Source: Candidatus Woesebacteria bacterium
GTDB taxonomy: Bacteria; Patescibacteriota; Microgenomatia; UBA8517
Direction: 5' to 3'
Length of the DNA stretch: 64,000 bases
Assembly (NCBI GenBank): GCA_020060845.1
Contig: JAGUZK010000045.1
Location: 8,685 to 72,684 of the forward strand
The notes beneath the pieces are model-generated. The model was not told where the DNA came from. It saw nothing but the letters and a program-made list of their open reading frames with translations, and did no database searches. This document shows positions 13,143 through 29,421 of this stretch, piece after piece. The first letter of the stretch is position 1. Each line of letters starts with the position of its first letter. The position numbers and the translations under genes are program-made.

Positions 13143-13170
13143 TCTGGCTTCGCTAGCGAAAGACCCCTAA
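13143..13170. repeat. compound palindrome: 8-bp inverted repeat (aggggtct/agacccct) enclosing a perfect 12-nt palindrome (ttcgctagcgaa)
   Basis: Read directly from the sequence. Followed on the + strand by aattttttataa; lies between the HTH gene and the recombinase start. Confidence 0.7.
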
Positions 13171-13180
13171 TTTTTTATAA

Positions 13181-13360
13181 TCAAGTTTTCGTCATAGGCT
13201 TCTCAAATAACTCTGCCAGCTTGACATTGCTGATTCTCCAGGCTTTGCCCAACTTAATAGCTGGCAATTGCCCTCGTCTTGCCATCCGATAAATGGTTAT
13301 CTTGGCAAGTTTGAGCTTTTCAGCTGCTTCGTTTATGGTTAGATATTCCTGGTTTTCCAT
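13181..13360 (-). CDS. excisionase-family HTH DNA-binding protein (AlpA/Xis-like, possible RDF)
   Basis: 59-aa ORF, below the ORF-track length cutoff: MENQEYLTINEAAEKLKLAKITIYRMARRGQLPAIKLGKAWRISNVKLAELFEKPMTKT. HTH pattern typical of the excisionase/MerR-like family. Confidence 0.55.
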   Translation of the reverse strand: MENQEYLTINEAAEKLKLAKITIYRMARRGQLPAIKLGKAWRISNVKLAELFEKPMTKT

Positions 13361-13394
13361 AAGGCTAATTGATATTGTTTGATATACTTACACA

Positions 13395-13619
13395 CTACCC
13401 AGAGGTTCTCTGTAAGTCAAGTGTGATCGTTAATGCTCCTTTATCCATCTTTTGTCTTTCTATAATATTCTGTCTTGCCAATGTAAAAAGGCGGTCATAA
13501 ACTAGTTTTAAGCGCTCGGCACTCTCTGGTTTATCCGCATAAATAAAGCTGATGTTAGGTGGCATTATCCTTCTCATGTTCGTATTTGGCATATTTCCCT
13601 GCGCCAATTTTCTTGTCAT
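13395..13619 (-). CDS. hypothetical small protein
   Basis: 74-aa ORF that overlaps the next ORF upstream; may be spurious or use an alternative start. Confidence 0.25.
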   Translation of the reverse strand: MTRKLAQGNMPNTNMRRIMPPNISFIYADKPESAERLKLVYDRLFTLARQNIIERQKMDKGALTITLDLQRTSG

Positions 13620-14169
13620 TCCAGTCCTTTATTACTTCACTGATTCTCTTACCCAATTCTTTTTCTTCTGGAGTCAGAGGTTTTTGCTCTATCTCTTCGA
13701 TGTAGTTCTTTGAAACTTCATATTTCCCAACAGATTCGCCCCACTCGATTCTTGTCATCTCCCAAAGCTGCCGAACTTCCTGGACAGTAGCTGGTTGACC
13801 TGCTTGCATCTGCTTTTTTAAAGCTTGAAGTTTGTTCCAAAACATCTCGGTGATAAGATAGGCTCTCTTTTGCCGAATCTGAGTTGTTTTCTTCTTAAGC
13901 ACCTCCAAATCTTCTGCTAATTTCTTATCTGCCCGCTCAACCCAGTGATATTTGACTGACCAGCGCTCTATTGTCCTTTCCGAGGGTAAATCGCCAAGTC
14001 TAGAGCCAAAAATCACCGACAACTCTCCTGCTGAACTCCGACTTATTTGTTGCCATGCCTGGATTAGTTTTGAGACGCTGCCAACTTCGCAATACAGCAA
14101 GAACGCCGAATATTGTTTCTCTGACTCCCCAGGCATTTTTGATGTTGTAAGTTTCTTTATCTTTTCCAT
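13555..14169 (-). CDS. hypothetical protein (phage-like module)
   Basis: 204 aa, helical and charged; no recognisable domain. Confidence 0.4.
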   Translation of the reverse strand: MEKIKKLTTSKMPGESEKQYSAFLLYCEVGSVSKLIQAWQQISRSSAGELSVIFGSRLGDLPSERTIERWSVKYHWVERADKKLAEDLEVLKKKTTQIRQKRAYLITEMFWNKLQALKKQMQAGQPATVQEVRQLWEMTRIEWGESVGKYEVSKNYIEEIEQKPLTPEEKELGKRISEVIKDWNDKKIGAGKYAKYEHEKDNAT

Positions 14170-14172
14170 AGG

Positions 14173-14541
14173 TTATTTTGCTTTTAGCATCGGCTTGCCA
14201 AGTTTCTTATAGATTCCTTCTCTAATTTTCTGCATTTGCTCTGGTGATAGCGGAATATAAGGTGCTTCAGTTGCTCGTTCTGGCAATTGCTTGGTATTTT
14301 TCAAAAATCTGCTTTTTCTATAAAACTCGGCGATATAAGGAATTGGTATTGCAAAGGAGTTAAAAACAATCGCTCCTCGCTCTCCTCTAGCTAGTGCTTC
14401 TTGAACAATTCGAGCCTGATTCTTACTTAGTTCGTATTCTCCCTTTGTGCTCATAATGACAACCCAAATCTCCTCATAATCTTCCTCATTAAATGCCAAG
14501 TTATTTGATATTTCTGGCATCGATGCCTCGTTTGCTGACAT
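14173..14541 (-). CDS. hypothetical protein
   Basis: 122-aa ORF tightly packed with its neighbours. Confidence 0.4.
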   Translation of the reverse strand: MSANEASMPEISNNLAFNEEDYEEIWVVIMSTKGEYELSKNQARIVQEALARGERGAIVFNSFAIPIPYIAEFYRKSRFLKNTKQLPERATEAPYIPLSPEQMQKIREGIYKKLGKPMLKAK

Positions 14542-15229
14542 GTTCGCTCGCCTCCTTTCTAATTTTTAATGCGTCACTTTTGACAAAATTCCTTAAAGCA
14601 GCCAGATAATTTTTATAGCGTTTGCCGTGTGCCTCGCAGTAATTAACCAGGCTGTCATAGCAACTCCTCACAAACGCCAGGGAAACTTGATAATCCTGGG
14701 CTACTTGCTGAAATTCATCTTCACCAAGACTGCTAATATCGGAATACTTTCCTTTAAGGGAGATTAAGTCTTTCTCTTTACTTGTGTTTATTTCTCTTTC
14801 AGTATCTGAAGAAATCTCTGAAGTATTATCTGAATTATATTGCTGATTTTCTGCAAATAGATTTGCTGAATCTCTACAAATTAAATTGCTGATTTTCTGC
14901 AAATTGAGCTTAAAGTGCCTTTTGGGAGGAACTCCTTTGAGTTCGACTTTCATTAAATTCAATCTCTTTATCTTTTTAATCGCACCTTCCTGTTCACTCC
15001 TTGATAGAGCAGTTTCTTCCTTAATTTCGTCAATAGTTTTATAAATTGATTCTGGGTCGTGTCCCTTTCCCCACCAATACAAAAGTTGTGAAAGTAGCAA
15101 CCCAGCCTTAACCGATCCTGTCAGTTTTGCCAATACTGGATTAAACGCTATTGGCTTAACGCTCAAAACTTCAAGAAGTTTCTTGTTGTAATTTATGTTT
15201 CTAGTCCTATTTTTATCCTGCTCTTCCAT
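14501..15229 (-). CDS. putative replication initiation/replisome-organizer protein (DnaD-like N-terminal winged helix)
   Basis: 242 aa. The N-terminal segment LAKLTGSVKAGLLLSQLLYWW...SRSEQEGAIKKIKRLNLM resembles phage replisome-organizer/DnaD N-terminal domains. This is a low-confidence family call. Confidence 0.35.
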   Translation of the reverse strand: MEEQDKNRTRNINYNKKLLEVLSVKPIAFNPVLAKLTGSVKAGLLLSQLLYWWGKGHDPESIYKTIDEIKEETALSRSEQEGAIKKIKRLNLMKVELKGVPPKRHFKLNLQKISNLICRDSANLFAENQQYNSDNTSEISSDTEREINTSKEKDLISLKGKYSDISSLGEDEFQQVAQDYQVSLAFVRSCYDSLVNYCEAHGKRYKNYLAALRNFVKSDALKIRKEASEHVSKRGIDARNIK

Positions 15230-15231
15230 AG

Positions 15232-15522
15232 TTATTTTTCCTGATACAATTTTTGCTTTAAATCTCGAATCACTGTTACCGCTCGTCTGAAATCAACGAG
15301 GCAACTGGGTGAATTTTCTGGCGCAAAATTGAAGGACTGGAGAAGTTCTTTTCGTTCTGGAGAATCTTTTAAGATAAAAACAGACCGCTTGGGATTAGAA
15401 GATGGTTCAACGCCTATAAGGTCAAAGCCTTTGAGGATTAAAAAGGCAACAGTATAGAAGCTGCCACATTTCCATTGTTTATCTTTATTGCGTTTTTCCA
15501 TATTGATTCTCCTTTGAGTCAT
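15232..15522 (-). CDS. hypothetical protein
   Basis: 96-aa ORF, first gene of the minus-strand phage-like block. Confidence 0.4.
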   Translation of the reverse strand: MTQRRINMEKRNKDKQWKCGSFYTVAFLILKGFDLIGVEPSSNPKRSVFILKDSPERKELLQSFNFAPENSPSCLVDFRRAVTVIRDLKQKLYQEK

Positions 15523-15789
15523 AAAAAAAGGGACTCTGTCTTGAGTCCCTATCTTGCTGGGAACACGCCGTAACCGCAGAAGTCGCAGTTACATCATGCT
15601 ATCTTTTCTGGAAAATCAATCAGGGGTGTTGCTTTCGAATAAAGTCGGAGGTGTGGCTGTCGTGCTATCGTTTCAATCCTAAGTCTTTTCAAGACTTTTC
15701 TTATATTATAAGTGTATATAGTCCTGAACCTCTTGTCAAGATTAAAAATGTAGTAAGATTATCTCCAAATTGATACAATATAAGTATAA

Positions 15790-15930
15790 AGCCTAAACCC
15801 GCAAGGGCATGGCTAAGAAAACCCATCACAGGCGGTAAGCTCCTCGTCAGAGCACCTGTGATGGGTCATATCCCGAAAGGGGTATGGGTAGCCGAAAGGC
15901 TATCGCTGGCGGGGAGCTTTTTGTTTGATT
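15790..15930 (+). ncRNA. candidate structured RNA / origin-like element
   Basis: + strand carries three GNRA-capped hairpins: cccGCAAggg (15798-15807), cccGAAAggg (15872-15881) and tagccGAAAggcta (15889-15902). A 12-bp perfect inverted repeat (acccatcacagg at 15821-15832, cctgtgatgggt at 15855-15866) is also present. A possible pseudoknot pairs gctcc (15839-15843) with ggagc (15913-15917), followed by a T-run. Confidence 0.3.
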
Positions 15931-15977
15931 TGACAATCTCCCCCAAGCGAAGTTAACATAGCCAACCATATCAAAAT

Positions 15978-16646
15978 ATGACAATAAAGATGAAAAATAA
16001 GGCTCGTATAGTCGTCCCGATCTTGTTTATTGCCCTTTTACTGCTTGCTGGTAGCTTATTTTGGTATAAGTCGTTTCAGGACAGGTTTGCTCCTCCTCGT
16101 AAAGACGCTCCTATGGTTAAGTTTCGAGTTGACAAACAAAACACTCTCATGGCTGTTACTGGCAATCTTCACTACTACGGTTTTGTCAAAGATGAGGAAG
16201 CACTTAAATATGCGCTTTTACATACCAAAGACAATAAGCTTGGCAAAGAAGGGGCGATCAAAGTTGGTAATAACACCATCGACACTGAGACCGCTTACGA
16301 TATTTCCCAATCGATGAGTGCTTGGGAGATAGCCAGAATTCTTCTCAATGAAGGCACACCAAGTATCAGAGATTGTGATCATGGTTGTGAGGAATATAAC
16401 CCTTTTACGCCAGCCATTTTGCCTGGTGGTGATATTGCTCCCACCTGGAAAGAACAAATGCAGGCAAAGTATAGCTGGGTAAAAAACTTTGATGATTGCC
16501 TTAAAGCCATCGGGCATGATGGCGGTCAAGTTACCAGCGAGGAGGCTTCTAAACGCACTGGTCATCCCAGGGTTTGTAATACCGCCGATGGTCGTTATTT
16601 TATTCAAGGAAAAGAAGGCTGGACTGATTATCCGCCTTATCCCTAA
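15978..16646 (+). CDS. hypothetical secreted/membrane-anchored protein
   Basis: 222 aa with an N-terminal TM/signal sequence (IVVPILFIALLLLAGSLFWY) and Cys-containing C-terminal domain. Confidence 0.5.
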   Translation: MTIKMKNKARIVVPILFIALLLLAGSLFWYKSFQDRFAPPRKDAPMVKFRVDKQNTLMAVTGNLHYYGFVKDEEALKYALLHTKDNKLGKEGAIKVGNNTIDTETAYDISQSMSAWEIARILLNEGTPSIRDCDHGCEEYNPFTPAILPGGDIAPTWKEQMQAKYSWVKNFDDCLKAIGHDGGQVTSEEASKRTGHPRVCNTADGRYFIQGKEGWTDYPPYP

Positions 16647-16655
16647 AGAAAGGAG

Positions 16656-17384
16656 GTGAAAAATATGAAGACTAAAATTATTATCGCTTTGGTTGTTCTT
16701 GTTCTCCTAGGAGCTTTAGTTTGGTGGAAAAAAGGCAGCAACTTACCAATACCTAATGTGACTACTAACAAAGAGACAGACTCTAAGACTGTTGAGATGG
16801 CTGCCATTAGGACATTTATGGCAGATCCTAATTTAGAATTCTCATTTGTTAATACTGACCTACCGATGCCATATTTTAGGGTTGGTAAGATTACTAAAAC
16901 CAAAGATGGAGAAAATATGGAGGCGGTTGAGAGATGGACAAGGAAAGTCAATGTCTATGAGGATACAAAACCATTAAATAATTCATGCGCCGTTTATCAA
17001 TATCATGTCGATCCTAAAAGCCATACCTTAACCCAAGCTGTAATAAGAAGCTTGCATCAAGATGAAATTGAAGCTCTCAAACAAAAAGGTACTCCTTGTG
17101 TATCAGTTGATCCTTTTGAAAACGCACCAGAATTAACTAAAGAAGAAGCTCAAAAGATTGCTTTTGGTTATTTAAGCCATGCCTTACCTAACTTTGAGGA
17201 GATTAAAGACCAATTTGTTTATTCTCAAGATCAAAAAGCTCACACCTGGCTTTGGGAAGATAAAAGTTATCAGTTACCAGAAGGATTAGAAGGAAGACCA
17301 TATTCCTATCCAATTATCCGCCTAACCGTTTATAGTCCTGGGCAGATTTTGTATTGGAACACTGTCCCGTTGTTTGAGAACTAA
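16656..17384 (+). CDS. hypothetical secreted protein
   Basis: 242 aa with an N-terminal signal/TM and a strong SD (aggaggtg) 8 nt upstream; 9-nt gap from previous gene. Confidence 0.5.
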   Translation: MKNMKTKIIIALVVLVLLGALVWWKKGSNLPIPNVTTNKETDSKTVEMAAIRTFMADPNLEFSFVNTDLPMPYFRVGKITKTKDGENMEAVERWTRKVNVYEDTKPLNNSCAVYQYHVDPKSHTLTQAVIRSLHQDEIEALKQKGTPCVSVDPFENAPELTKEEAQKIAFGYLSHALPNFEEIKDQFVYSQDQKAHTWLWEDKSYQLPEGLEGRPYSYPIIRLTVYSPGQILYWNTVPLFEN

Positions 17385-17506
17385 AACCACCACTGCCTAT
17401 TGGTTAAGATGCCCAACGAGGCTTTTGAAGCTAAATTAAGGTAAACTATGCCACTCCAGGCAGGAAAGTTCCATAAAAGTTAACACGGGAGGCTACTTTC
17501 GGTAAC

Positions 17507-20500
17507 TTATTTAATTCCTTTCTTCATAAGCTGGATGTTTTCATCTGCCCTTTGTTCCTCAAATTTAATGTTGTCATCTAAATACTTTTCATAGCCCTTA
17601 ATAAAAATCTGTAGGGTTGGATTCTTATCTTCCTTCCAGGGTTGAATCTCATCTTTTTTTCGCTTGTAGGCATCCTTCACTCCGTATTCTCCTGTTACTA
17701 CTCCTGTTTGAGAAAGAATGATAAACATTTCGCTTCGATATTCCCTATATAATTTGTTGCCTGTGTTTTGAAGAAATTTCTTAATGAAAGCCTTTGATAC
17801 TTCGTGGAGAAACGGTTCGCCTTTATAAGCTCTCAAAATTGAAAGAACTAAAAGTGCGTTGCGTTTACCACCCTGTTTTATTAAATCTAAAAGATAAGTT
17901 TCTAGCTTGCCGTTAAAAGAGGGAAAAATTGCTCTCAATAGATTACTTGCCTCAAAATGATACAGCCAATCTTTTTCCGAGAACCATTTTAATATCTCTG
18001 TAATTACGACTTTCTCAGATTGAGCCAAGTCTTCCCGAATTTCATGAAAATCTAGTGGAATAGCATCATATCTGTAGCGTTCTTGTGTTTTTAGATGATG
18101 AGTAACTCTCTCAAAGAAGAAACCTATTACTTTTTGAGGATATTTTTTTATAATTGGTTTTAAGATTTCTTCGACATGATAATCCACAGAAGAGTGGAGA
18201 ATTAAACTTTTTAGCACGGTATTGTAATCTTGACTCTTAAATGTCTCCAAAAGAGAATAATCTCTTACCCACAATCTTGTTGCCCAACTATCATCCTTGA
18301 TTTTAATTAACTCCTGCAGTGTTAAGATGAATATTTGCTTAAGTTGATTAGAATCACTATGCTTTTCCATGCAAACACGCAGGATGTTAAACATAGCATT
18401 TTTGTCTTTTGATCCAATTACCTTCTTAAATATCAGATTAAGCAGATCTAAATCTAGAGTATCGGTGTAGGTGAACAAATAACTCAACACAAAAAGGTGC
18501 CTACCTCTTTTTGACCATTCGATCGCCAACTTCTTAGCTAGGGGTTTTTTGCTACTTTCCCATATACCAGCCAGTAAGTGGATAAGGAAAAACTTCATTT
18601 CTTTTTCGTGTTTTGTCAGCAGTTCAATTGCAAATTCTGGTTTATCTTTACCCAGCCTGTGCAGGAAGATATTGAAGTATTGAAACTTGCCAGCATCCAC
18701 ATCTGTATATTCCTTGGCAATAGAGATAATCCTGTTTAACCATTCCTTCCGAGTTTCATCATTGATATTCTGAATAAACTTATTGATCTTGTTTTCTCGT
18801 TGTTCTTTTGCTTTTTTCCAATCCAATTCCTCATCAAACTTATAATCGTAGCCAAAAAAGACTTTGAACATGTTGTATTCTTTATCTGAAGCTATTCTTG
18901 TTTCTAACTCGCTTATCTTAGGAAGTCTATCCTTACCGTATCTTTTAACAAACCAGTGTGCCTGTTCTTCAATCTCTTTAATAAGTTGAGCATCGCTATC
19001 TGGAAATATCGACAAATAAAACTCTATAATTTTATTTGTATCATTTACTACTAAATCTTCTAACTCCTTGCTGTAATTACCTCTACTTGGCGTCCTAGTC
19101 GCCTCGTTTAATGACAGAAGTATTTCTTTTCTAACTTGAACATCTTTTGAGCTTGTATAAAGTTTCTTTAAGATTTCTATTGTGCGTCCCCTTATTTTTT
19201 GAAGTAATTCTGATGGCTTGAGAGAACCAAACGAAATTGTAAATGTCTTATAGTCAGACATTGAATGACCTTCATATTCTGGGTTTAACAACTCTTTGGC
19301 TATTATGTTAATTACTTCTTGATTTTTTATTTTTTTGCTATCGCTCCACTTTTCTAGTTCATCCAAGGTAGTGCCTTGAGCTAGATAACCAATATACTTT
19401 AAGGCATAAAGGTTATATTCAACTAAGGATTTAATCGCTTCGATTGCTTTTTTCCTATACTCTTCTTTCTCGGCAAGGTGCGTAAGCAAATCCAAAACTT
19501 CTTTAGGTTTGTGATATCTTACCTCTTTCAAGAGATCAATAACTTTAAGAATTACATCTTGATTCGATTTTCCCTTAAACTTCCCAAGTTTGCTTTTATA
19601 TTCTTTCTGGGGAAGGGGTTTTGCGTTTATGAGAGCCTTAGAAATCTTAATAACCTGGTCTGGAACTCGGAATGCGTATTGTTCAAGTATCTCTAAATTG
19701 GCACAAATATCATCATTGTTAGTCGGAGTTTTTGTAATAAAATTAAGTAATCCTATTGACTCTTTTTGTAAGAATTTGGTTGCCTGTTCTGTCTTAGCAA
19801 GTTGTTCTCGTATACGAGCCTTTTCCTCTTTCGAATCAAAGAAGCTATCTATATGCTCAGGTGAGGTATCGCTAATCAGTTCGAGGAGAGACTCCATGCC
19901 TATTTGTTCATTTTCAACAAGATACAAATTGGGTGTGCTGATAATTATCTCCTTATCTAATAATTTTTGGATAATTACGGTAATTTCTTCTTCTGATACT
20001 CTTAATATCTTGCTAAATATGGCAGCCACTTTTCCTTTAGGTATGGCTCTAATAAGATAAAGAAGCCCTACGCATTTAACTGTATTTTCTTCAAATGATC
20101 TCGCTAGGTCTGTTAGCGACTCACTCAACTCACGATAACTTTGACTCTTTGCAAATTGCTGCCATCGTCCATTTAGCTCACTGGAGTTATCTCCAATTTC
20201 CCTACCTGTCAAGTCAAGTGTCCTTCCTTTTGTGTCCGAGTGGAGTTTTAAGGATTTTTTTGTTTTCTCATCAAAAAAGAACCAATATGTTTTTTGAGCG
20301 GTTGTATCCACAACAAAAAGTAGGGTTGGAACACTGGAGTTAACAAGATAATCTATAACTGACCGCTTGCAGAAGTATTTGTTGTTCTTAATAGATTTTT
20401 TACTCTTTTGTTGGTAGTGGAGGTATTTCTCTAAATATCTTCCCCTGCCGTCCCTTAGGCGGATTTCTCCGTCAATATCTGGAGTTTTACCGTTAAACGG

Positions 20501-20590
20501 ATTTACTGAAAAATATGACTCGTCGAGAGAGGTCTGAAGAATTTTGCTACCCTTTTCATCAATCGTGTCTTGTTGAGTATATTTGCTCAT
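17507..20590 (-). CDS. large protein: DUF4365-like PD-(D/E)xK N-terminal domain + long alpha-helical (HEAT-like) repeat region; last gene of the Type III R-M operon
   Basis: 1027 aa. The N-terminal ~130 aa (PDIDGEIRLRDG...YLHYQQKS) match my recollection of the DUF4365 nuclease-fold pattern (DxD...QxK). The rest is helical with no NTPase motif. It starts 7 nt downstream of res. Confidence 0.6.
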   Translation of the reverse strand: MSKYTQQDTIDEKGSKILQTSLDESYFSVNPFNGKTPDIDGEIRLRDGRGRYLEKYLHYQQKSKKSIKNNKYFCKRSVIDYLVNSSVPTLLFVVDTTAQKTYWFFFDEKTKKSLKLHSDTKGRTLDLTGREIGDNSSELNGRWQQFAKSQSYRELSESLTDLARSFEENTVKCVGLLYLIRAIPKGKVAAIFSKILRVSEEEITVIIQKLLDKEIIISTPNLYLVENEQIGMESLLELISDTSPEHIDSFFDSKEEKARIREQLAKTEQATKFLQKESIGLLNFITKTPTNNDDICANLEILEQYAFRVPDQVIKISKALINAKPLPQKEYKSKLGKFKGKSNQDVILKVIDLLKEVRYHKPKEVLDLLTHLAEKEEYRKKAIEAIKSLVEYNLYALKYIGYLAQGTTLDELEKWSDSKKIKNQEVINIIAKELLNPEYEGHSMSDYKTFTISFGSLKPSELLQKIRGRTIEILKKLYTSSKDVQVRKEILLSLNEATRTPSRGNYSKELEDLVVNDTNKIIEFYLSIFPDSDAQLIKEIEEQAHWFVKRYGKDRLPKISELETRIASDKEYNMFKVFFGYDYKFDEELDWKKAKEQRENKINKFIQNINDETRKEWLNRIISIAKEYTDVDAGKFQYFNIFLHRLGKDKPEFAIELLTKHEKEMKFFLIHLLAGIWESSKKPLAKKLAIEWSKRGRHLFVLSYLFTYTDTLDLDLLNLIFKKVIGSKDKNAMFNILRVCMEKHSDSNQLKQIFILTLQELIKIKDDSWATRLWVRDYSLLETFKSQDYNTVLKSLILHSSVDYHVEEILKPIIKKYPQKVIGFFFERVTHHLKTQERYRYDAIPLDFHEIREDLAQSEKVVITEILKWFSEKDWLYHFEASNLLRAIFPSFNGKLETYLLDLIKQGGKRNALLVLSILRAYKGEPFLHEVSKAFIKKFLQNTGNKLYREYRSEMFIILSQTGVVTGEYGVKDAYKRKKDEIQPWKEDKNPTLQIFIKGYEKYLDDNIKFEEQRADENIQLMKKGIK

Positions 20591-20597
20591 TTCTCAT

Positions 20598-22916
20598 TCA
20601 ATTGACTGTATATGCGCTACTGATAATAGCGTCAAAACTGTTAATTCTGTTTACTGCCGTATGGGGCAAGAGTTTATAGATCCACTTCTTCTTAGTCGCT
20701 TCAGAGGCTATCTTGCACCATTCTTCTGCCTGCTTTGCCTTTTCCAAAACCTCTGGGTCTTTTTTGTCGAGTTTGCTTTTGTCTTTTACTTCTACCAAGT
20801 AATTGGCATCTTTTCTCTCGACAATAAAATCTGGGTTATAGTTGCCGTAAATATACTTAATTGGTAGTTGTCCGTTTCTAAGCCTTACCCAACTAATAAC
20901 TGTTTTGTCTTTCTCTAAGGAATCTGCTAGTAGTTTCTCTTGTGTCGAATCAAAAACATAAGCAGGGTAAACACTTTTGTTATAACCCTCGATGATATTG
21001 CCTCTAGACTCAGTTTCGCTTACTTCGTCTTTATTTAATGGCACTGCTGAGGCTTTTACCACTTTCATGTATGGCTCAAAAGGAATTTCTTCATCCACCA
21101 CTTGATACTCAATCCTTGTTTGCTCATCCAGCTTTTCTCGCAGCTGGGGTAAGATATCATTCAGAATTGTCTGCTCATGCAGTTTTACGAGTTCCGATAG
21201 TTCTTTCCCTTTAACTTGAAGTTGATCGAGATAATGTTTAACTAATCTTTGCAAGACAGCCTTGAAAGAAATATCAAATTCAGACATCTCAAGTAGAATG
21301 AGTCTAACAATCCTATTAACTGGATTAATTTCTTCCTTTACTTCGATGTCTCCTGCTTCTTCTGTTTGCCTGGAAACAATATCTGCTTTAATAAGTTTTG
21401 GTTTAATTTTCTTTAACTCCTCTAGGCGCAACTTTATTGGAAAGAACTCCAATTTATTGCTTGAATATACTCTTGCTTCAACAGATGGAATTTTAATCCA
21501 AAGTTTTTTGTTTTCAATTGGCTTAATTTCAACTGTTTTTAATTCCTCTTTCTTTTCTGCCTTTTTAACCCCAAGCCCTTCTGCTACTTCATGGGCAACT
21601 GCCACCACTCTGGCAAAATTGTCGTGAGAGATAATATCCAGGGAATCCAGCTCTTCAACGCCCGTTAGCTCGCCAAAGGGCAATCTAAGCCCCCTACCAA
21701 TGGTTTGCTCGATAAGAGTCCTACTGATTGAGGCCCTGAAGGGGATGATGGTATAGACATTTTTAACATCCCAGCCTTCTTTGAGTTTGTCCACATGAAT
21801 GACAATCTCATTTTTATTAACTGGGAATGGTTCTTCTAAACGGAGCAGTTGATGAATAGAGTCAACTTCACTTTCGCTAGTTACCAATAGTGTTTTATCC
21901 TTGTAATAGCCATCAAAGAAATCGTCACTTTCAACCATTGTTTTAACATCTTTGGCGTGTTGGATGTTTCTAGTCGTTATAAGGGTGATGGGCAATACAA
22001 AGGGGAGTTTGTTATTTTTACAGTATTCTTCGATTAAAGCCTTCTTTTCTCTGTGCCTTCTTATTCCATCCTCAAGTTTGACTAGTTCGAGGTCGCCTTT
22101 ATAGGTATAGTCATCGCTTCGAGCTATGACATAAGGAATTTTGATGTAACCGCCTTTAGCGCCGTTACCGTCATGTAAGCTCGCCAAAGCCTTTTTAGAA
22201 TCGTTTATAGCGTCTGCCAGTGTATAAGAATAGACAACATTGTTCTCGTTGGCTGGTGTAGCCGTGAACTCCAGTCCTAGTTCTGGTTTCAGATGGTTTA
22301 TTGCCTTGATTGACTTTACCCCTCGATAACGGTGACTTTCATCCATTAAAATAACTAGATCTTTTTGTTGGAGAAGTTCAGCAAAGCTCGATCCTAGAGT
22401 TTCTTGATAGCGGTGAAATCTAAACTCAACATCAGTTCGTTCATTGAAAATCTTTTGGATGTTGAAGACATAAATGTTAACCGCATCAAAAAGCTGGTTG
22501 CCAAAGTTAGCGTAGGTGTAATTTTCACCTGTGATTAAATTAAACATCGGAAAGTCGGTTAAACCGTCTAGGACATATTTTTTACTCGAAGGAGTAAAGT
22601 TGTCGATTGTTTTTGTATAAATTGTTTCTCCTGGAGTTAGAATAAAGAAATCTTTTAATCCCTTCGTGTAGTAAAGATAAGCGATCATTGCAGCCATTAG
22701 CCTGGTTTTGCCCACGCCTGTTGCTAGCGCAAATGTGAATGAAGGAAATTCAGTATCAAATTTGATATTACCAACTAATCTTGCCTCAATATCTTCAAGT
22801 TTATCTTTGCCGAGCTTTATTCCTGAGATGATTGAGTCAAGTTTAACAAGAGAAAGTTCTTGAGGCTTTCTTAAACTTAATTCCTTAGTTAATTTTTCGA
22901 TAATGTTCATACTCAT
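20598..22916 (-). CDS. res: Type III restriction enzyme Res subunit
   Basis: 772 aa. SF2 helicase motifs (ATGVGKTR, DEAH-like MDESHRY) and a C-terminal PD-(D/E)xK motif (PDFIV...LVEVKD). Confidence 0.85.
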   Translation of the reverse strand: MSMNIIEKLTKELSLRKPQELSLVKLDSIISGIKLGKDKLEDIEARLVGNIKFDTEFPSFTFALATGVGKTRLMAAMIAYLYYTKGLKDFFILTPGETIYTKTIDNFTPSSKKYVLDGLTDFPMFNLITGENYTYANFGNQLFDAVNIYVFNIQKIFNERTDVEFRFHRYQETLGSSFAELLQQKDLVILMDESHRYRGVKSIKAINHLKPELGLEFTATPANENNVVYSYTLADAINDSKKALASLHDGNGAKGGYIKIPYVIARSDDYTYKGDLELVKLEDGIRRHREKKALIEEYCKNNKLPFVLPITLITTRNIQHAKDVKTMVESDDFFDGYYKDKTLLVTSESEVDSIHQLLRLEEPFPVNKNEIVIHVDKLKEGWDVKNVYTIIPFRASISRTLIEQTIGRGLRLPFGELTGVEELDSLDIISHDNFARVVAVAHEVAEGLGVKKAEKKEELKTVEIKPIENKKLWIKIPSVEARVYSSNKLEFFPIKLRLEELKKIKPKLIKADIVSRQTEEAGDIEVKEEINPVNRIVRLILLEMSEFDISFKAVLQRLVKHYLDQLQVKGKELSELVKLHEQTILNDILPQLREKLDEQTRIEYQVVDEEIPFEPYMKVVKASAVPLNKDEVSETESRGNIIEGYNKSVYPAYVFDSTQEKLLADSLEKDKTVISWVRLRNGQLPIKYIYGNYNPDFIVERKDANYLVEVKDKSKLDKKDPEVLEKAKQAEEWCKIASEATKKKWIYKLLPHTAVNRINSFDAIISSAYTVN

Positions 22917-24580
22917 ACTTTAAACTTTTTTAATAAAACATCGGGAATTTTTCTAACTTCGACATTTTCTGGTAACTTAATTTTACTTGATATTGTTTTG
23001 GCATAGATAATAAGATAATCAGCTTTGTCGCCAACTTCTCGCACTATAGCATTTACATAATCCTGACTAAGATATTGTTCAGTTACATGGGCGATAGTTC
23101 TTCCTGAAATACCATGTAGGGCATTATCTGGATTAAGGAGTTTGAACCCTTCAACTTTCAGAACTGCCCGAATAAGATCTCCGTTGTAGACCTTTGGATT
23201 TAGAACCGTTAGCCTCAAATCATCATCGGCTACAAATAGACTGTCTCCCAGCTCAAAATATTTGAAACCGCCCCCACCTTTCCATCCAACTTCTTTACTG
23301 ATACCGCTTTGATCTTCTCCTGAAATCACTCTTTTCAAGCGGGGGATGATATGAGTTTTTGCATGCTCACCCAACTCTACCATTATCCATTTCCTACCCA
23401 TCTTATGAGCTACTGCACCCGTTGTGCCTGAACCTGCAAAACTATCCAAAACAATATCTCCTGGTTTTGTAGCCAATTCTATAATTAATTTGATTAAAGC
23501 CTCTGGTTTTTTGCTCTGCTTAAACTCAACTCCTCCTTCAAGGTGAAGAGCTGCATTTGGGAATTTCCATATGTTCGAAAGTCGCTGTTTTTTGATCAGT
23601 GTTCCATCTTTCTTTTTTTCAACAACTTCTTTTAACCAGGCGACTATACGCCCATTTAGAAAGTAAGTCTTGATAAGTTGCCCTGCATATTTTCCTTTTG
23701 TCGGGATATATTCGATGTAAGACAGTCCTTTTTGGGGTATCTCTGGTCGAATTTGTAAAATTGTCCCACCGCTTGGGTTATAGTCAGCAAAAACATTGTT
23801 AAAATGCTTGTAATAATCATCTATAGAGTCGCTCGTCCTAAACTTCTTGATCTCGTAATTCTCACATTTATATATCTTAATTTCTCCGATATTCAATCTT
23901 TGAATTGTTTTGATAAGTTTTGACTTGCCTGGATTTAATAAGGCTTTGTTATATCCTTTGACAAAACCTTCTATCTCCACTTCTGTCATCGTTTGTAAAG
24001 TACCTTCTTCTCTAAGAAGTTTATAGTCCTTGGCATAAACAAGGATGTATTCACTAACATCAAAAATTAAACTTTGTTGTCCTACTCCAGCCACATCTTT
24101 TACCTGAACTGTAATAAAGGATACAAAATTATCATCTCCAAACTTTTCATCCATAATCATTTTCAATCGAGCGAATTCCCTGGAATCAATATGCACAAAT
24201 ATAAGACCCCTTTTATTTAACAGTTTATGAAGTAAGTCGATTCTATCCCTCATCATTGTCAGCCAAATAGAGTGTTCTAAACCGTCATCATAAAATTCAA
24301 AAGCAGCACCAGTATTAAATGGGGGATCGATATAGATAAGTTTTATCTTTCCTTCATAATCGGGAAGAAGGGCTTTTAACGCTAAAAGATTGTCTCCTTT
24401 TATTAAGATGTTTTCTGTATTTTTATCACCATAGACTGCTTTCTCTAGAAGAATGCGAGGCTCTGAGACCCTGGGGTCTTTTTTATCTACCCATTGATAT
24501 TTTTTCTTTTCAGGATCATAGTAAAGACTTTTGTCTTTGTTATACCAGGTTAATTCTAATTTTTTACTTTTTTGAGACAT
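22913..24580 (-). CDS. mod: Type III DNA methyltransferase Mod subunit (N6-adenine)
   Basis: 555 aa with motif IV IYIDPPFNTG and a SAM-binding region; overlaps res by 4 nt. Confidence 0.85.
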   Translation of the reverse strand: MSQKSKKLELTWYNKDKSLYYDPEKKKYQWVDKKDPRVSEPRILLEKAVYGDKNTENILIKGDNLLALKALLPDYEGKIKLIYIDPPFNTGAAFEFYDDGLEHSIWLTMMRDRIDLLHKLLNKRGLIFVHIDSREFARLKMIMDEKFGDDNFVSFITVQVKDVAGVGQQSLIFDVSEYILVYAKDYKLLREEGTLQTMTEVEIEGFVKGYNKALLNPGKSKLIKTIQRLNIGEIKIYKCENYEIKKFRTSDSIDDYYKHFNNVFADYNPSGGTILQIRPEIPQKGLSYIEYIPTKGKYAGQLIKTYFLNGRIVAWLKEVVEKKKDGTLIKKQRLSNIWKFPNAALHLEGGVEFKQSKKPEALIKLIIELATKPGDIVLDSFAGSGTTGAVAHKMGRKWIMVELGEHAKTHIIPRLKRVISGEDQSGISKEVGWKGGGGFKYFELGDSLFVADDDLRLTVLNPKVYNGDLIRAVLKVEGFKLLNPDNALHGISGRTIAHVTEQYLSQDYVNAIVREVGDKADYLIIYAKTISSKIKLPENVEVRKIPDVLLKKFKV

Positions 24581-24581
24581 A

Positions 24582-25421
24582 TCAATCTTTTACTAAACTT
24601 AATGTTTTAACAAAATCAATGAATTTATAACCAAACTCTGTAAGGAATTCTACTTTGCTAGCACCTGAACCAATACCACCATCTTTTACTCCTACTCTAA
24701 ATATTCCAAGAGATAGAAGCTCACTTGATATTTCAGCATATTGGTTTTGTTTCTTCCGTTCTTCTTCAAACTGTGCCTTACTTAGGTTCTTGTCTTGGGA
24801 GATATTGGGAATTCTTGATTTAACAATCTCGCTATTAGGATTAAATTCTTCATAAATCCAGTGCATGATAACCTCAGAGTCTGGTTTCTGTCTCATAGTA
24901 AGTTCTTCCCACCACTCAACACTACCTTCATGCTTTCCTTTCATCTTAGCTACTTCTTCCTTTGCCCATTTTTCTTTCCTAGGGATAATAACCTCAGATA
25001 TAAACTTTAAATACTCAAGAGATTCTAATGAAATTTCCTGAGCCACTCGATAAAACCTTTCTAGATTTATTAGATGCCTATCTTCTGCTGAAACATAACC
25101 ATCTAGATAAATTTGCTGTATGAGTTTTCTTTTCTTTATTTCTCTGGTTCTTATTAATGCTTCAAAAGTTATTGCTAATGACTGTTGAAATTCTTGAGAG
25201 CTTAATATTTCTTCCTTAAGTTGGGGAACATGTTTTTTTAATAGATTCCAAAATTCTTTACCTTCATCTGGATATAAGTCAAAAAAAGACCAAACTGCAA
25301 CTTTGCAAAAAAATAAAGATCCTCTCGTGTAAGGATTAGGAGGAAGATTTTTCTCTATTTCATCCATTAAAGCTAAAAAAGTATTTTTTGTCACAGCTTT
25401 CAATGTTTTAGATATTTTCAT
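24582..25421 (-). CDS. hypothetical protein (operon member, unknown function)
   Basis: 279 aa, translationally coupled (1-nt gap to mod, 4-nt overlap with HTH gene). Confidence 0.5.
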   Translation of the reverse strand: MKISKTLKAVTKNTFLALMDEIEKNLPPNPYTRGSLFFCKVAVWSFFDLYPDEGKEFWNLLKKHVPQLKEEILSSQEFQQSLAITFEALIRTREIKKRKLIQQIYLDGYVSAEDRHLINLERFYRVAQEISLESLEYLKFISEVIIPRKEKWAKEEVAKMKGKHEGSVEWWEELTMRQKPDSEVIMHWIYEEFNPNSEIVKSRIPNISQDKNLSKAQFEEERKKQNQYAEISSELLSLGIFRVGVKDGGIGSGASKVEFLTEFGYKFIDFVKTLSLVKD

Positions 25422-25612
25422 TTTTTCTTTTTATTTAAAAAGATTTTTATTTTGTTAGGATCATATCTTCTATCTCCTCGTTTATTAATTCTAACAGCCT
25501 TGAGTTTGCCATCCTTATCCCATCTGCGTAAGGTTTCGGCATGCACATTTAAGATTTCTGCTGCTTGTTTTATGGTTAGGAGTTTTGGTAAATCAAATTT
25601 ATTTTTACTCAT
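25418..25612 (-). CDS. excisionase-family HTH DNA-binding protein
   Basis: 64 aa: LTIKQAAEILNVHAETLRRWDKDGKLKAVRI. Confidence 0.55.
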   Translation of the reverse strand: MSKNKFDLPKLLTIKQAAEILNVHAETLRRWDKDGKLKAVRINKRGDRRYDPNKIKIFLNKKKK

Positions 25613-25614
25613 AT

Positions 25615-27420
25615 TTAATGTTGACTATTTAATTTTGTTGCTATGGCTTCTTGTTCATCGTATAGAGCTTTGTCCTGATCAATCATTTTCTGCTCGGCTG
25701 CTGTTAGCCATTGATTAGACTCCATCCTTGTAACGATTGCCGAAATATTAGCGATTCTTGTCGATATTATCTCATTAATTCTATCAATATCGCTTTTATT
25801 TTTCTCATAAAATTCTTTGTATTCTTTTAACTTTGCCCAACCTGGTTGAATTTCTTTTAATCTTTCAAGTGAAGTTCTCCAACTATCTATTACTTCTTTT
25901 GAATAGTTGGGTGGTACATAACCTGCAAAATGCTGAACGATTACTTGAGTGGGGCAACCATTGATTTCTCCTTCTACCTCAGCGATGCCTACCTCTTGAT
26001 AGGTTTTATCTGTTAAAAATTTTTTGGATTCTGGAAACTGGAATTGGTTGTCAATTAACTCTTCTGCTTCGTAATAACCCTGTGTAGGTGCTTCACCCCA
26101 AACAATATTGGAGTAATTAGTCTCCCTCATAGCCTTTTCCATTGTGTAACCACTTCTTGTTGCCTCAAAGGAGAAATCGTCAAACTTTAAGATTGTCTCG
26201 CCTCTTTTTTGAGCCGACAGTTCAAGTTTTGGTTGGTATTTTAGTTCTCTTGCACCTGCCTCTTTTCGCTTTTCGTTAAGAAGTGTTAAGTATTTTTCTT
26301 TATCAAGTTTTATCTTTGAGGATTCATCAAAATCTCTTGAGGTATCTCGCCAGTATTTAGCAAGATCACCCTTTTGATCTTTAAGGGGCAAGACATGATT
26401 GACAGCGCTAATCTCAACAAACCCAATTTCTCTTGAATCTCCACTTCCTTTGCGATTGTCTCCCATTACAAAAATATGGTTTTCAGGGACAATCACTTTC
26501 TGACATTCCTTTAGAAAAGCCTCTCCAAATGTGGATCGAGGCTTTGCGGTATAAGGTTCTTTTAAGGGCTCGCCGTTAAGGTAAACAATTCCTTCTCGAA
26601 GTTCGATACTGTCGCCTGGCACACCAATTACTCTTTTAACCCACCCTGAAGGTTCACCATACATATTTTTGGTCATCTCCCTAATTTTGTCGTTTTCAAC
26701 AACAACAATGTCCCCCCTACCGATTTCATAATTAAAGTATCTTCTGCCCGCAATTACTAATCCGTTAGGGTAGCGTATCATGCCTGGGTAGCCAACAATT
26801 TGTTTTGCCAATTCTTTGGGGTCTTTTCCTTCGCCTTTGGGAAAGGTTGGAAACATTGACCCTGTCCCAGCTATAGCAATTGCTTCTGGGTCGTAACCTA
26901 AAGCCTCCTTAACCATTACCCCAACTAGTGCGTAACCACCAATCCAAATCGGCAAGATAATTGCACCAACAATTAAAAGTGCGATTATTTTTGTCATGAA
27001 AGGTTTGATACTAAACCCTTTAAGTAGCCCCTTGATGCCTGTATGTTTAAGTTTTTTGATAGCTTCAAGGGGTCTGAGGATATAAACCGCCAAATAAAGG
27101 GGTAAAACAGCAAGAATAAAGAAGAGCTTTATAAGAAAAACAAAGATATTTTGCTTTTTCTGAGACCTCTTAGCTATAAGTTGGGCAGTAAAACTAATAA
27201 TCCCCACTAAGAAAGCCAGACATCCTACTAAAACCAACCCTAAAACTAAGAAGGCATAGATATTGGGAGCTTTATCAAAAAGTTCTCTTCTGATACCTAC
27301 AACATAGCCGATCATTACTAACACACTTATGACGCAGGTTAGCCAAATCACAAATGAGATCTTAATGACTTTATTAAAGGGCGCTTTTTTCTCTTGTAGT
27401 TGTGACAGTTTTTTCGGCAT
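25615..27420 (-). CDS. signal peptidase I (S26)-domain membrane protein with extra ~250-aa C-terminal domain
   Basis: 601 aa. N-terminal multi-TM region, then catalytic motifs GSMFPTF (Ser), VKRVIGVPGD (Lys) and GDNRKGSGDSR, then an unassigned C-terminal domain. First gene of the six-gene operon. Confidence 0.7.
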   Translation of the reverse strand: MPKKLSQLQEKKAPFNKVIKISFVIWLTCVISVLVMIGYVVGIRRELFDKAPNIYAFLVLGLVLVGCLAFLVGIISFTAQLIAKRSQKKQNIFVFLIKLFFILAVLPLYLAVYILRPLEAIKKLKHTGIKGLLKGFSIKPFMTKIIALLIVGAIILPIWIGGYALVGVMVKEALGYDPEAIAIAGTGSMFPTFPKGEGKDPKELAKQIVGYPGMIRYPNGLVIAGRRYFNYEIGRGDIVVVENDKIREMTKNMYGEPSGWVKRVIGVPGDSIELREGIVYLNGEPLKEPYTAKPRSTFGEAFLKECQKVIVPENHIFVMGDNRKGSGDSREIGFVEISAVNHVLPLKDQKGDLAKYWRDTSRDFDESSKIKLDKEKYLTLLNEKRKEAGARELKYQPKLELSAQKRGETILKFDDFSFEATRSGYTMEKAMRETNYSNIVWGEAPTQGYYEAEELIDNQFQFPESKKFLTDKTYQEVGIAEVEGEINGCPTQVIVQHFAGYVPPNYSKEVIDSWRTSLERLKEIQPGWAKLKEYKEFYEKNKSDIDRINEIISTRIANISAIVTRMESNQWLTAAEQKMIDQDKALYDEQEAIATKLNSQH

Positions 27421-27474
27421 AACTCAACAAAATTATACAAAAATTAAAGAGAAATTGGTATACTGTTTGTTGCT

Positions 27475-28311
27475 ATGGCAGATAATTTAGAAGAAAGAAT
27501 TAGTGAACGCCTTAAAAAGCTTCAATCAAGAAAGGGATATTATTATCTCCTTACACATCTTGATTACCCATCAAATCAGAAGCGCCTGGACAAAAACGCT
27601 ATAAACGCTCAAATAAAAGTGATTGAGGACGCACTGCCAGAAATTAAAAAACTGATGAAGCAAATCAAAAGATATGTCCCCCATATTTGGGATCAGACTA
27701 AATATGCAGCAGCCTATCTGCTTCTTGGGAAGGCATTTAGTAATCTTGAAACGATAATTCTTCTTGCCCAGAAAGGACACAATCTTGAGATGGTAGATTT
27801 AGCACGCTCTGGAACGGAATCTATTGATTTAGCATTTCTTTTATCTGAAGATAGCCAAAACCAACAACTTGAAAAGTGGTTTAAGGGGAAAATTATCGAA
27901 AATGAAAAAGCCCGAAAGGCTCTTGATAGAGTAATTAACCAACTAAATCCTGCTTCCGTCAAACTACCCGTAGAGGAAATGAAAAAAGAAGTTTATAAAA
28001 CCTATTCCCTCTACACACATAGCAGTTATGCTGCTCTCCTAGATTCAATCGATGTCTTTCATGAAGATTTTGATTTTGAAAGATATGCAGGATTTCACTT
28101 CGCCAGAAGAAACCTACACGCTGTCCAAGACCTGGCTATCAAAATTCTATTACAGCTGAAAAACATCTATGTGCAATGTAAAAATCAAGATTGTCTAAAT
28201 GAAGTCGACGAATTACTAAAACAAATAGGACATATTGATATGACCCCAGGAGAAATCGCCAAAGTTATAAATGAGCATCTTGGTGATAGGAGTAAAAAAG
28301 ATAAAACATAA
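27475..28311 (+). CDS. hypothetical helical protein
   Basis: 278 aa, divergent from the six-gene operon across a 54-bp intergenic region. Confidence 0.5.
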   Translation: MADNLEERISERLKKLQSRKGYYYLLTHLDYPSNQKRLDKNAINAQIKVIEDALPEIKKLMKQIKRYVPHIWDQTKYAAAYLLLGKAFSNLETIILLAQKGHNLEMVDLARSGTESIDLAFLLSEDSQNQQLEKWFKGKIIENEKARKALDRVINQLNPASVKLPVEEMKKEVYKTYSLYTHSSYAALLDSIDVFHEDFDFERYAGFHFARRNLHAVQDLAIKILLQLKNIYVQCKNQDCLNEVDELLKQIGHIDMTPGEIAKVINEHLGDRSKKDKT

Positions 28312-28326
28312 ATTGTTCTGAATATT

Positions 28327-29421
28327 ATGGCTCATTATCGATATTTGAGGGACGAATCTTACTATAATGACCTTTACGATCTCCACACCATCGAGACCTG
28401 TCTTGATTACTACTGGAGCTTGAAAAGTGGCTTTGAAAAGCATCGGGGTGACAAGAGTTTCAAAAAATACTCCAAGAAAAAGTTCGATACCGAGGTTCAC
28501 AAAGTTGTCAGCTATACCATCAACGCTATTAAAATCGACAGGTTTCGGCATAAAAAGGACACCATCCTAAAGTGGATGGACGATGATCGCCAACGCCAGG
28601 ATCGATTAGACAATGCCGTCGAACCGAAGGATATTCTCTGCCATCAATGCAATAGCCCAATGCTCGCTACCACTAAAGACCTCATAGACCACCTAAATAA
28701 ACCCATGAGAGTTCTTTTCTTCTTTGAATGTCCAAACTGCAAGAAAAGACGAGGTGTTTATGATGATGGCTCAGAGTTTGTTTCAAAACCCCCACTCTGC
28801 CCTAAGTGCAAACACGAAGCCAGGCTAACCTACAAAAGAAAGGGGGAGGTAACAATCTGGACGACTTCCTGTTCTTCTTGTGGCTATAAAGAGGTTGACA
28901 AAGACGATTTTAATAAATGGGAAGTCGATAGAAAGAAAAAAGAAGAGCGAGATCGACTCCTACTTAAGGAATATCGTGCTGAGTTTTGTCTCTCTGATGA
29001 AGATGGTCAGGATTGCCTTTGGAGAATTGACCAGATGAAAAGGCTCGTAGACGAAATGGAAGAGCGGGAAAAACACAAAAAAGAATATGACGCAGTAGCC
29101 AACATTAAAAAACTGACTGTTGTCGAGCTTGAAAAGCTCATTAACGACACCATCAATTCTCAAGGTTATATCCGTCTTGAATTGTCCAAGCCTGAGTTTG
29201 GAAAGCAGCTTATCGTTGGTTTTACTGTCCAAGACAGTAACACCTCCCGCCAAGAGTATGACAGTCGCAATGGCTTCAGAAAGCTCGTTCAGGGGGCTTT
29301 ATCAGGCACAAACTGGCGCTTGATGGTCACCAGCCTTAGTTATCGATTGGGTTATCTTCAGGGTAGCCTCAGAGCCTACGAAACAGAGGAAGACATCCTC
29401 ACCCTTGTAAGGAAGAAGTAA
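28327..29421 (+). CDS. hypothetical protein with two zinc-ribbon-like CxxC pairs
   Basis: 364 aa with CHQC...CPNC and CPKC...CSSC; lies 15 nt after the previous gene. Confidence 0.5.
   Translation: MAHYRYLRDESYYNDLYDLHTIETCLDYYWSLKSGFEKHRGDKSFKKYSKKKFDTEVHKVVSYTINAIKIDRFRHKKDTILKWMDDDRQRQDRLDNAVEPKDILCHQCNSPMLATTKDLIDHLNKPMRVLFFFECPNCKKRRGVYDDGSEFVSKPPLCPKCKHEARLTYKRKGEVTIWTTSCSSCGYKEVDKDDFNKWEVDRKKKEERDRLLLKEYRAEFCLSDEDGQDCLWRIDQMKRLVDEMEEREKHKKEYDAVANIKKLTVVELEKLINDTINSQGYIRLELSKPEFGKQLIVGFTVQDSNTSRQEYDSRNGFRKLVQGALSGTNWRLMVTSLSYRLGYLQGSLRAYETEEDILTLVRKK

Follow-up and report, generated by a model that had tools for sequence, protein, structure and literature searches.

A stretch of 64,000 nucleotides (nt) from a Candidatus Woesebacteria contig, referred to here as the window, carries a block of six tightly packed minus-strand open reading frames (ORFs) at positions 17507-27420, with a Type III restriction-modification (R-M) pair in its middle. 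A sequence-only reading of the window had taken these genes for a candidate new composite defence system. We conclude, with a probability of about 0.8, that the block is not one six-gene system but a mosaic, i.e. the host signal peptidase gene lepB followed by a swappable defence island on a satellite-like integrated element. Bacteria of the Candidate Phyla Radiation (CPR) mostly lack CRISPR and are not culturable, and their phage resistance is largely inferred from genomes. All coordinates are window positions unless preceded by the label (e.g. L001) of one of the homologue-bearing loci used for comparison.

An ORF check returned the same six ORFs at the same coordinates. The junction spacing and domain calls of the sequence-only reading likewise proved right, the latter by searches with Pfam, NCBIfam, PADLOC 2.0.0 (2023) and PHROGs profiles. 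Homologues were found elsewhere for all six products; the ORFs are therefore real genes. Their tight spacing is just moderately unusual for a compact genome: 37% of the co-directional junctions elsewhere in the window measure 7 nt or less, and the run of five such junctions in the block is the longest of the window, followed by runs of 4 and 3. Tight, overlap-coupled packing of genes in such compact CPR genomes is no evidence for a functional unit. A consensus scan of the minus strand within the block detected no terminator-like sites, and the block contained 31 promoter-like matches compared to a shuffled expectation of 37.3 +/- 6.1, i.e. no excess. Both scans gave values at or below shuffled expectation and are hence uninformative. 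A recognisable Shine-Dalgarno sequence was found upstream of none of the six start codons.

The first gene of the block belongs to the host. Its product of 601 amino acids (aa) matches Pfam Peptidase_S26 (2e-27) and the signal peptidase I family TIGR02227 (2e-26), and consists of N-terminal transmembrane helices, the S26 catalytic domain, and a weak C-terminal CAP/YkwD-like domain. More than 837 homologues have a length of about 600 aa. Species-representative genomes of Woese-, Shapiro-, Davies-, Collier-, Gottesman-, Roizman-, and Levybacteria contributed 436 S26 loci, and the catalytic boxes of signal peptidases (S188, K262, and GDNR at 320-323) are invariant in the S26 alignment. Given its presence at hundreds of Microgenomates loci and its invariant catalytic boxes, the S26 gene is therefore housekeeping lepB. 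Judged by these comparisons, it is the essential core signal peptidase I of Microgenomates and stands outside the defence cargo. The complete Ch104a genome of Candidatus Woesebacteria (CP055308.1, 802,554 bp) encodes an identical protein. Gene order around lepB varies from genus to genus. To the 3′ side, we surveyed 72 lepB loci whose 3′ end is complete and is followed by 300 nt of sequence or more. A small helix-turn-helix (HTH) gene of the kind found second in the block adjoined lepB in 7 of the 72, any Mod/Res-like gene was located downstream in 7, and a homologue of the 279-aa or the 1027-aa gene in none. An empty site is illustrated by L127 (lepB 77% identical), where 310 nt follow lepB before unrelated convergent genes begin.

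The junction between lepB and the HTH gene marks the start of the exchangeable part. The 64-aa HTH protein has matches to Pfam HTH_17 (1e-10) and MerR (2e-11), to PADLOC mad1 (3e-12), and to an excisionase/regulator PHROG. Its ATG is positioned 1-4 nt past the lepB stop codon in the window (2 nt) as well as in L005, L014, L015, L028, L029, L031, L033, L053, and L128; in L017, a decayed HTH remnant is present at the same junction. The C-termini of the lepB products read ...NSQH or ...SQW at occupied sites and ...NSQ or ...NSR at most empty sites, with ...SQN at two empty ones, a pattern that suggests site-specific insertion at the stop codon. HTH homologues after lepB are 77-92% identical and head different cargo. 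These identities, and those of Res (87-91%), were observed in genomes with lepB just 57-61% identical; as they lie far above the identity of lepB, the cargo is therefore mobile.

Seven arrangements behind the HTH gene exemplify this variety. They comprise (i) 279-Mod′-Res-351-305-PDC-S02-like nuclease in L001; (ii) a Res-like protein of 860 aa, DUF3800, and a Mod-like protein of 593 aa behind lepB-HTH in L014, a complete genome of the same species; (iii) Mod-Res-SMC/AAA_21 in L031; (iv) HNH_5-Mod-Res and further genes in L005; (v) HEPN-Res-Mod plus an AAA_15 ATPase in L033; (vi) Res-Mod followed at some distance by a 1141-aa HEAT protein in L053; and (vii) an SMC-like ATPase with a small N6_N4 methyltransferase (MTase) in L028 and L029. 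The position between HTH and Mod is empty or occupied by unrelated genes in other genomes, and the position after Res is equally variable. The cargo is thus a defence island of exchangeable cassettes, namely an optional small gene (here the 279-aa gene), Mod-Res, and a variable slot after res (here the 1027-aa gene).

The central cassette is, by its motifs, a complete and intact Type III R-M pair. In such systems, Mod hemimethylates an asymmetric site, and Res, composed of a superfamily 2 (SF2) ATPase and a PD-ExK nuclease, cuts unmethylated DNA in an ATP-dependent reaction that requires sites in inverse orientation. The window Mod matches PADLOC MTase_III (2e-120) and Pfam N6_N4_Mtase (PF01555, 6e-41); in its translation, IYIDPPFNTG is followed by a variable centre, the target-recognition domain (TRD), and then by DSFAGSGTTG, and this motif order identifies it as a beta-class N6-adenine methyltransferase. 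Res matches PADLOC REase_III (6e-86) and Pfam ResIII (4e-21), RE_endonuc (4e-7), and TnsA-like_N (1e-7), and its translation retains the GVGKT and MDESH motifs of the SF2 ATPase and the C-terminal endonuclease motif NPDF...VEVKD. The mod gene is located directly upstream of res with an overlap at 22913-22916, and L001, L005, L011, and L031 show the same arrangement.

Cassettes are exchanged even between near-identical strains: two stretches differ in L001 and L002 (identical 279-aa protein), which are otherwise 98-99.4% identical to the window on both flanks. The first stretch is the centre of mod (23440-24245, minus strand; L001 11177-12015), where blastn produced no alignment between flanks of 99% identity. 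On the protein level, Mod shares 27-37% identity with that of L001 over residues ~121-347 and 95-100% in the N- and C-terminal blocks. Since the drop in identity is confined to the centre, the TRD has therefore been swapped between strains, which would change restriction specificity. The TRD of the window is also present in L011, a different host, and Mod of L094 may represent a third TRD allele (61% identity). Simple-sequence repeats of the type associated with phase variation were not found in mod. The second stretch (17468-20605, minus strand) covers the whole 1027-aa gene. In its place, L001 (14823-17879) and L002 (9581-12595) carry a cassette of three genes encoding proteins of 351/337, 305, and 347 aa. 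The 347-aa product is a NucS_C/YhcG PD-(D/E)xK nuclease (PADLOC candidate PDC-S02, 7e-52); the 351/337- and 305-aa products gave no profile matches. Res of L001 is 99.6% identical to that of the window, yet the downstream cassette is different. As near-identical strains differ by exchange in the TRD of Mod and also in what follows res, they offer a strain-level view of the arms race.

Linkage of the 279-aa gene to the R-M pair was not conserved either. Its product has no match in Pfam, NCBIfam, PADLOC, or PHROGs, and no relatives in IMG/VR or GenBank phages; just 15 homologues were found among 5.8 billion proteins. An AlphaFold2 (AF2) model (mean confidence score pLDDT 78) is all-helical with a C-terminal winged-helix-like hairpin, and its fold matches are restricted to generic helical and winged HTH proteins. 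The protein is possibly DNA-binding. Beyond the source lineage, the family occurs in five distinct contexts, four of them without Type III R-M and one on the opposite side of lepB. In L006, HTH (79% identity) and a 279-aa homologue (75%) appear in the same order within a serine-recombinase element devoid of R-M; in L008 and L009, the homologue stands beside a GmrSD/Schlafen-like gene and in L004 beside an HTH_3 gene; in L005, it lies divergently on the other side of lepB, and an HNH_5 gene occupies the usual 279 slot. Conversely, HTH-Mod-Res is found without a 279-aa gene in L031 and L011. From this distribution, the 279-aa gene is an independent, rare accessory cargo.

For the 1027-aa gene, 45 full-length homologues were identified. 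Homologues of this Type III Mod/Res pair occur near its relatives at 2 of 37 loci, i.e. in L094, which belongs to the same lineage, and in L011, where the order is HTH-Mod-Res-1028 aa-truncated recombinase-ychF. Other neighbours include GmrSD, Eco57I/MmeI-like MTases, HsdR/HsdMS, AAA_13, SMC-like proteins, STAND NTPases, HEPN-TPR, and integrases, a diversity of neighbours typical of defence islands. A fixed partner gene was sought by clustering 125 neighbouring ORFs and was rejected, recurrences being lineage-restricted. The recurrent clusters (GmrSD-like at 9 loci, an MmeI-like MTase at 5, and a 336-aa protein of unknown function at 4) are read as defence-island synteny and not as a partner gene. 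The family had no match in IMG/VR or GenBank phages. Its sequence and neighbourhoods make the 1027-aa gene a good candidate for an autonomous, independently mobile defence gene not yet described.

Two further observations concern this family. A ~700-aa GmrSD_N/SLFN_AlbA_2 protein is encoded directly downstream of the 1027 clade of ~42% identity in L010, L098, L101, L106, L107, L116, L117, and L123, and such a protein also follows a 279-family gene in L008 (7289-9415); this recurrence may reflect lineage synteny or a real pairing. In L094, a metagenome contig from the same lineage that also carries a different Mod allele, the 1027-aa gene (4366-6424) is 100% identical and split between residues 127 and 144, with frameshift, deletion, and assembly error as candidate causes.

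The N-terminus of the 1027-aa protein matches DUF4365 (PF14280, 1e-9) and PADLOC Aga_REase (1e-9). Its AF2 model (pLDDT 87) consists of a DUF4365 Mrr-like PD-QxK nuclease, a winged helix, and an alpha-solenoid of ~770 aa resembling HEAT/ARM repeats. The nuclease site is intact, with D38, D40, and Q60 invariant in the family and K62 conserved in at least 90%. Their counterpart in TmuRE, a SPARDA-type nuclease, is the active site Q62/K64, which has been probed by mutation (PMC10810196). No NTPase family matched the protein, and the model is devoid of an alpha/beta NTPase domain.

The solenoid belongs to a much wider family. With a solenoid profile, 1741 clusters (50% identity) were retrieved at E <= 1e-3, 796 of them at E <= 1e-30. 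Architectures were classed in the best 150 of the 1741 clusters; among these, the N-terminal domain was DUF4365 in 31 and RelA_SpoT in 43, and 76 consisted of the solenoid alone (~780-820 aa). The RelA_SpoT fusions are supported by Pfam (1e-9 to 1e-12) and by PADLOC PDC-S33 matches at the N-terminus; such fusions are encoded on Sphingobium and Rhizobium plasmids, with the Rhizobium gene close to SIR2 and VapBC genes. A Sphingobium example is WP_017501911, and WP_058461130 and WP_058461131 form a PIN + solenoid pair in Legionella. The solenoid-only genes examined, on Legionella and Pseudanabaena plasmids, have a homologous PIN_12 gene upstream at a gap of 2 nt (Table 1). This two-gene module is kept in two phyla, and its Legionella copy adjoins an integrase. 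No PADLOC 2.0.0 system matched the solenoid in any architecture, and in the literature searched we found no description of a DUF4365 + HEAT/solenoid protein of ~1000 aa or of a PIN + solenoid pair. Swapping of toxic effectors on one conserved scaffold is a hallmark of sensor-effector immune proteins. Tentatively, and at somewhat short of even odds, we propose that the solenoid defines a large unnamed family of immune sensors, spread across CPR, Proteobacteria, and Cyanobacteria, with interchangeable DUF4365, RelA/SpoT, and PIN effectors. It would constitute a new modular abortive-infection system which, in Microgenomates, rides on an HTH_17-led array at the lepB stop codon and is read through from a housekeeping promoter. 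The family, equipped with one or other of these effectors, is a concrete candidate for a new defence system.

In the window, the 1027-aa protein would be a sensor-effector of the abortive-infection type that acts alone. Its DUF4365 nuclease would be restrained by the solenoid and the winged helix as long as no phage-derived trigger is bound and, once triggered, would degrade DNA non-specifically. Expression of the cargo operon may depend at least partly on read-through from the lepB promoter. An extended -10 element (TGTATAAT) was read from the sequence at 27432-27439 (minus strand), ~11 nt ahead of the lepB start codon. No other clear promoter occupies an intergenic position upstream of the block, where the divergent intergenic region measures just 54 nt. 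The element is so near to the start codon that the predicted lepB mRNA is nearly leaderless. The 64-aa HTH_17 protein, akin to the C-protein of R-M systems, would serve as transcriptional controller of the cargo.

Divergent from lepB, a 278-aa gene (weak DUF5677 match) and a 364-aa gene of unknown function are found at 27475-29421 (plus strand). In L005 (10001-11640), the same position upstream of lepB is taken by a 279-family gene and then a DUF5677 gene; the upstream side of lepB may thus be a second variable slot.

The sequence-only reading had also set the block inside an integrated element, and rightly so: the block lies in or next to one that carries a serine recombinase, a small terminase, an O-like initiator, and a second excisionase-like ORF. 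The element begins just after lepB, and its genes from 11429 to 25612 cover ~14.2 kb (Table 1). It has the gene set of a phage satellite of about 10-15 kb, i.e. integrase, excisionase-like regulator, replication initiator, and packaging-redirecting small terminase, and resembles either such a satellite or a prophage that has been reduced. Most backbone genes have homologues in the same order behind HTH in L006, L028, and L029. The backbone of L028 runs on into a large terminase subunit (20407-21758; GpA_ATPase 8e-19), and some members of the element family may be complete prophages, not satellites. The housekeeping gene ychF comes next after the recombinase in the window and in L011; elsewhere, ychF is not beside lepB. 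A 25-nt direct repeat (13318-13342 versus 25555-25579) led to the previously unlisted 59-aa HTH_17 ORF, a paralogue of the 64-aa HTH gene situated directly upstream of the serine recombinase; of the two HTH products, its own is the better candidate for the excisionase, or recombination directionality factor, of the element. The LOOT RNA, on which the literature searched has very little, is intergenic between the DUF5659 gene and a plus-strand 222-aa gene. Taken together with the lepB junctions, these data describe a recurrent Microgenomates defence hotspot directly after lepB, with a satellite-like serine-recombinase carrier and a conserved small HTH leader.

Table 1. Genes and other features of the block and the integrated element (window positions), and PIN_12-solenoid modules at other loci
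Feature	Position	Strand	Remarks
lepB-type S26, 601 aa	25615-27420	-	2 nt gap to HTH gene
HTH_17, 64 aa	25418-25612	-	4-nt overlap with 279-aa gene
279-aa gene	24582-25421	-	1 nt gap to Mod
Type III Mod, 555 aa	22913-24580	-	4-nt overlap with Res
Type III Res, 772 aa	20598-22916	-	7 nt gap to 1027-aa gene
1027-aa gene	17507-20590	-	last gene of the block
Two unknown genes	15978-17384	+	
LOOT RNA (RF03000)	15790-15904	+	Rfam 85.7 bits (gathering score 46.4), full length
DUF5659 gene	15232-15522	-	
O-like replication initiator/HTH_36	14501-15229	-	PHROG 4e-26
122-aa ORF	14173-14541	-	
Small terminase subunit	13555-14169	-	PHROG 4e-14
Second HTH_17 excisionase-like ORF, 59 aa	13181-13360	-	HTH_17-type motif; sequence start MENQEYLTINEAAEKL
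Large serine recombinase, 563 aa	11429-13120	-	Pfam Resolvase/Recombinase/Zn_ribbon_recom
PIN_12 (332/346 aa) + ~800-aa solenoid	L129 5003-8424; L131 4958-8409		Legionella adelaidensis plasmid (L129); Pseudanabaena galeata plasmid (L131)

If all six genes formed one composite defence system, with the flanking genes as obligate accessories of the Type III core, junctions of at most 7 nt and the lack of an internal terminator would fit well, as would the order from S26 through Res in the near-identical strains L001-L003 and that of 279-Mod-Res-1027 in L094. These loci, however, represent the same species-level lineage (98-100% DNA identity) and are not independent. Beyond this lineage the linkage dissolves: hundreds of genomes carry lepB without its companions from the block, the 279-aa gene is found where R-M is missing or across lepB on the other strand, and HTH-Mod-Res does without it. 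The 1027-aa gene, for which sister strains have other genes, mostly stands without homologues of this Type III pair. We regard one six-gene system as scarcely credible. Across unrelated genomes, the S26, 279-aa, and 1027-aa genes thus do not stay together with mod/res (0 of 72 lepB loci, four of five 279 contexts without Type III, 2 of 37 loci for the 1027 family), which on the sequence-only reading's own terms refutes a tie of the flanking genes to Mod/Res. Of the flanks, which that reading did not recognise as described defence genes, the 1027-aa gene is the candidate for an undescribed one, and the S26 gene is a host gene. A different division of the block would assign the HTH-279 pair to maintenance or regulation of the element (excision, immunity control) and not to defence, with R-M and the 1027-aa gene inserted between backbone genes. 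The pair in L006, the excisionase matches of the HTH protein, and the winged-helix-like end of the 279-aa model are in line with such a role. Yet the second excisionase-like ORF adjoins the recombinase and is better placed; of the ~12 contexts of the HTH gene, at least 9 have it at the head of cargo with an MTase, among them L011 and L042, where it is not beside lepB; and most elements of the family are devoid of a 279-aa gene, the L008 copy lying by the GmrSD/Schlafen-like gene away from such a backbone. We therefore consider this division unlikely.

Several points weigh against the mosaic. Some concern the 1027-aa protein, which could be a guard of R-M that fires when phage anti-restriction disables it, Mod-Res-1027 then being a unit. 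A precedent is PrrC-EcoprrI, in which the gene of an anticodon nuclease lies within a locus for Type I R-M. The Mod-Res-1027 trio recurs in the different host L011 (ychF only 50% identical) at 89/91/84% identity and with the same 7-nt gap, and L112 has the array HTH_17-HsdR-HsdM/S-1027 homologue (40% identity); by their gene order, these two arrays leave room for a functional relationship between R-M and the 1027-aa protein. Type IIG Eco57I/MmeI-like enzymes are encoded directly or 1-2 genes upstream in L010, L100, L105, and L107, and an R-M gene is found just upstream in about 8 of ~30 informative loci. Nevertheless, the R-M types differ (I, IIG, III) and no specific protein partner is conserved, at many 1027 loci the adjoining genes are not R-M but code for AAA_13, STAND NTPases, integrases, or housekeeping functions, and L001 combines a nearly identical Res with another cassette. 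Defence islands harbour R-M genes more often than any others, hence adjacency at this level is expected by chance. With no constant R-M type as partner and with R-M missing at many loci, the guard reading, kept alive by the L011 and L112 arrays, is not favoured and appears improbable. With regard to the element, a search of its flanks for direct or inverted repeats produced nothing convincing, and no attachment sites were found; the far boundary next to ychF is putative. BLASTP detected no similarity between the recombinases of the window and L006. In addition, we infer both the co-transcription from the lepB promoter and the controller role of the HTH protein, and the defence function proposed for the solenoid family follows from neighbourhood and domain logic. 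The family may also have been named since the release of PADLOC 2.0.0 (2023). On balance, we retain the mosaic of host lepB and swappable island.

Compared to known systems, the closest likeness of the central cassette is to the Type III R-M systems EcoP15I and EcoP1I (Mod2Res), with which it shares the mod-res order, a beta-class Mod with central TRD, and a Res built from SF2 and PD-(D/E)xK parts. It differs in a shorter Res (772 aa versus about 970 in EcoP15I) and in its location behind an HTH_17 leader within a cassette array. The allelic exchange of the TRD resembles the mod alleles of phasevarions. As for the carrier, P2/P4 hotspots and phage-inducible chromosomal islands (PICIs) are prophage and satellite defence hotspots; the element resembles them in its integrase, excisionase-like HTH, initiator, and small terminase, and in a variable defence block at a fixed position. 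In contrast to these, it resides in a CPR host, uses a large serine recombinase, and has its hotspot abutting the lepB stop codon. The 64-aa HTH protein resembles mad1 of MADS (Maestri et al. 2024) in its profile match and in leading a methylation-based operon. Membership in MADS, whose mad1-mad8 set comprises HTH, ATPase, kinase, MTase, and nuclease components, was rejected, as PADLOC returned no mad2-mad8 match among the other five proteins.

The 1027-aa gene is comparable to PrrC-EcoprrI in that a putative latent nuclease gene stands beside R-M, its relatives being found by Type I, IIG, and III systems. Unlike PrrC, its product is without an ABC-ATPase or anticodon-nuclease domain, and its association with R-M is not obligate. 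With SPARDA/TmuRE-Ago (DREN-APAZ plus a short prokaryotic Argonaute), it shares the DUF4365 nuclease domain and its Q-x-K signature; in SPARDA, a sensor releases the activity of this domain, which then cleaves DNA non-specifically. It was not assigned to SPARDA, there being no APAZ domain and no Argonaute gene in the protein or among its neighbours; its sensor moiety would be the fused ~770-aa HEAT-like solenoid with the winged helix. STAND/Avs membership was rejected as well, since neither the profiles nor the AF2 model contained the central P-loop NTPase that such proteins have between effector and repeat sensor. CapRel(SJ46) and its kin are single polypeptides with a toxic N-terminal effector and a C-terminal sensor/antitoxin. 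The ~770-aa scaffold has no sequence relation to the pseudo-ZFD of CapRel(SJ46), and the likeness is one of architecture: an effector and a possible sensor are joined in one chain, and sister solenoid proteins carry toxSAS-like RelA/SpoT domains.

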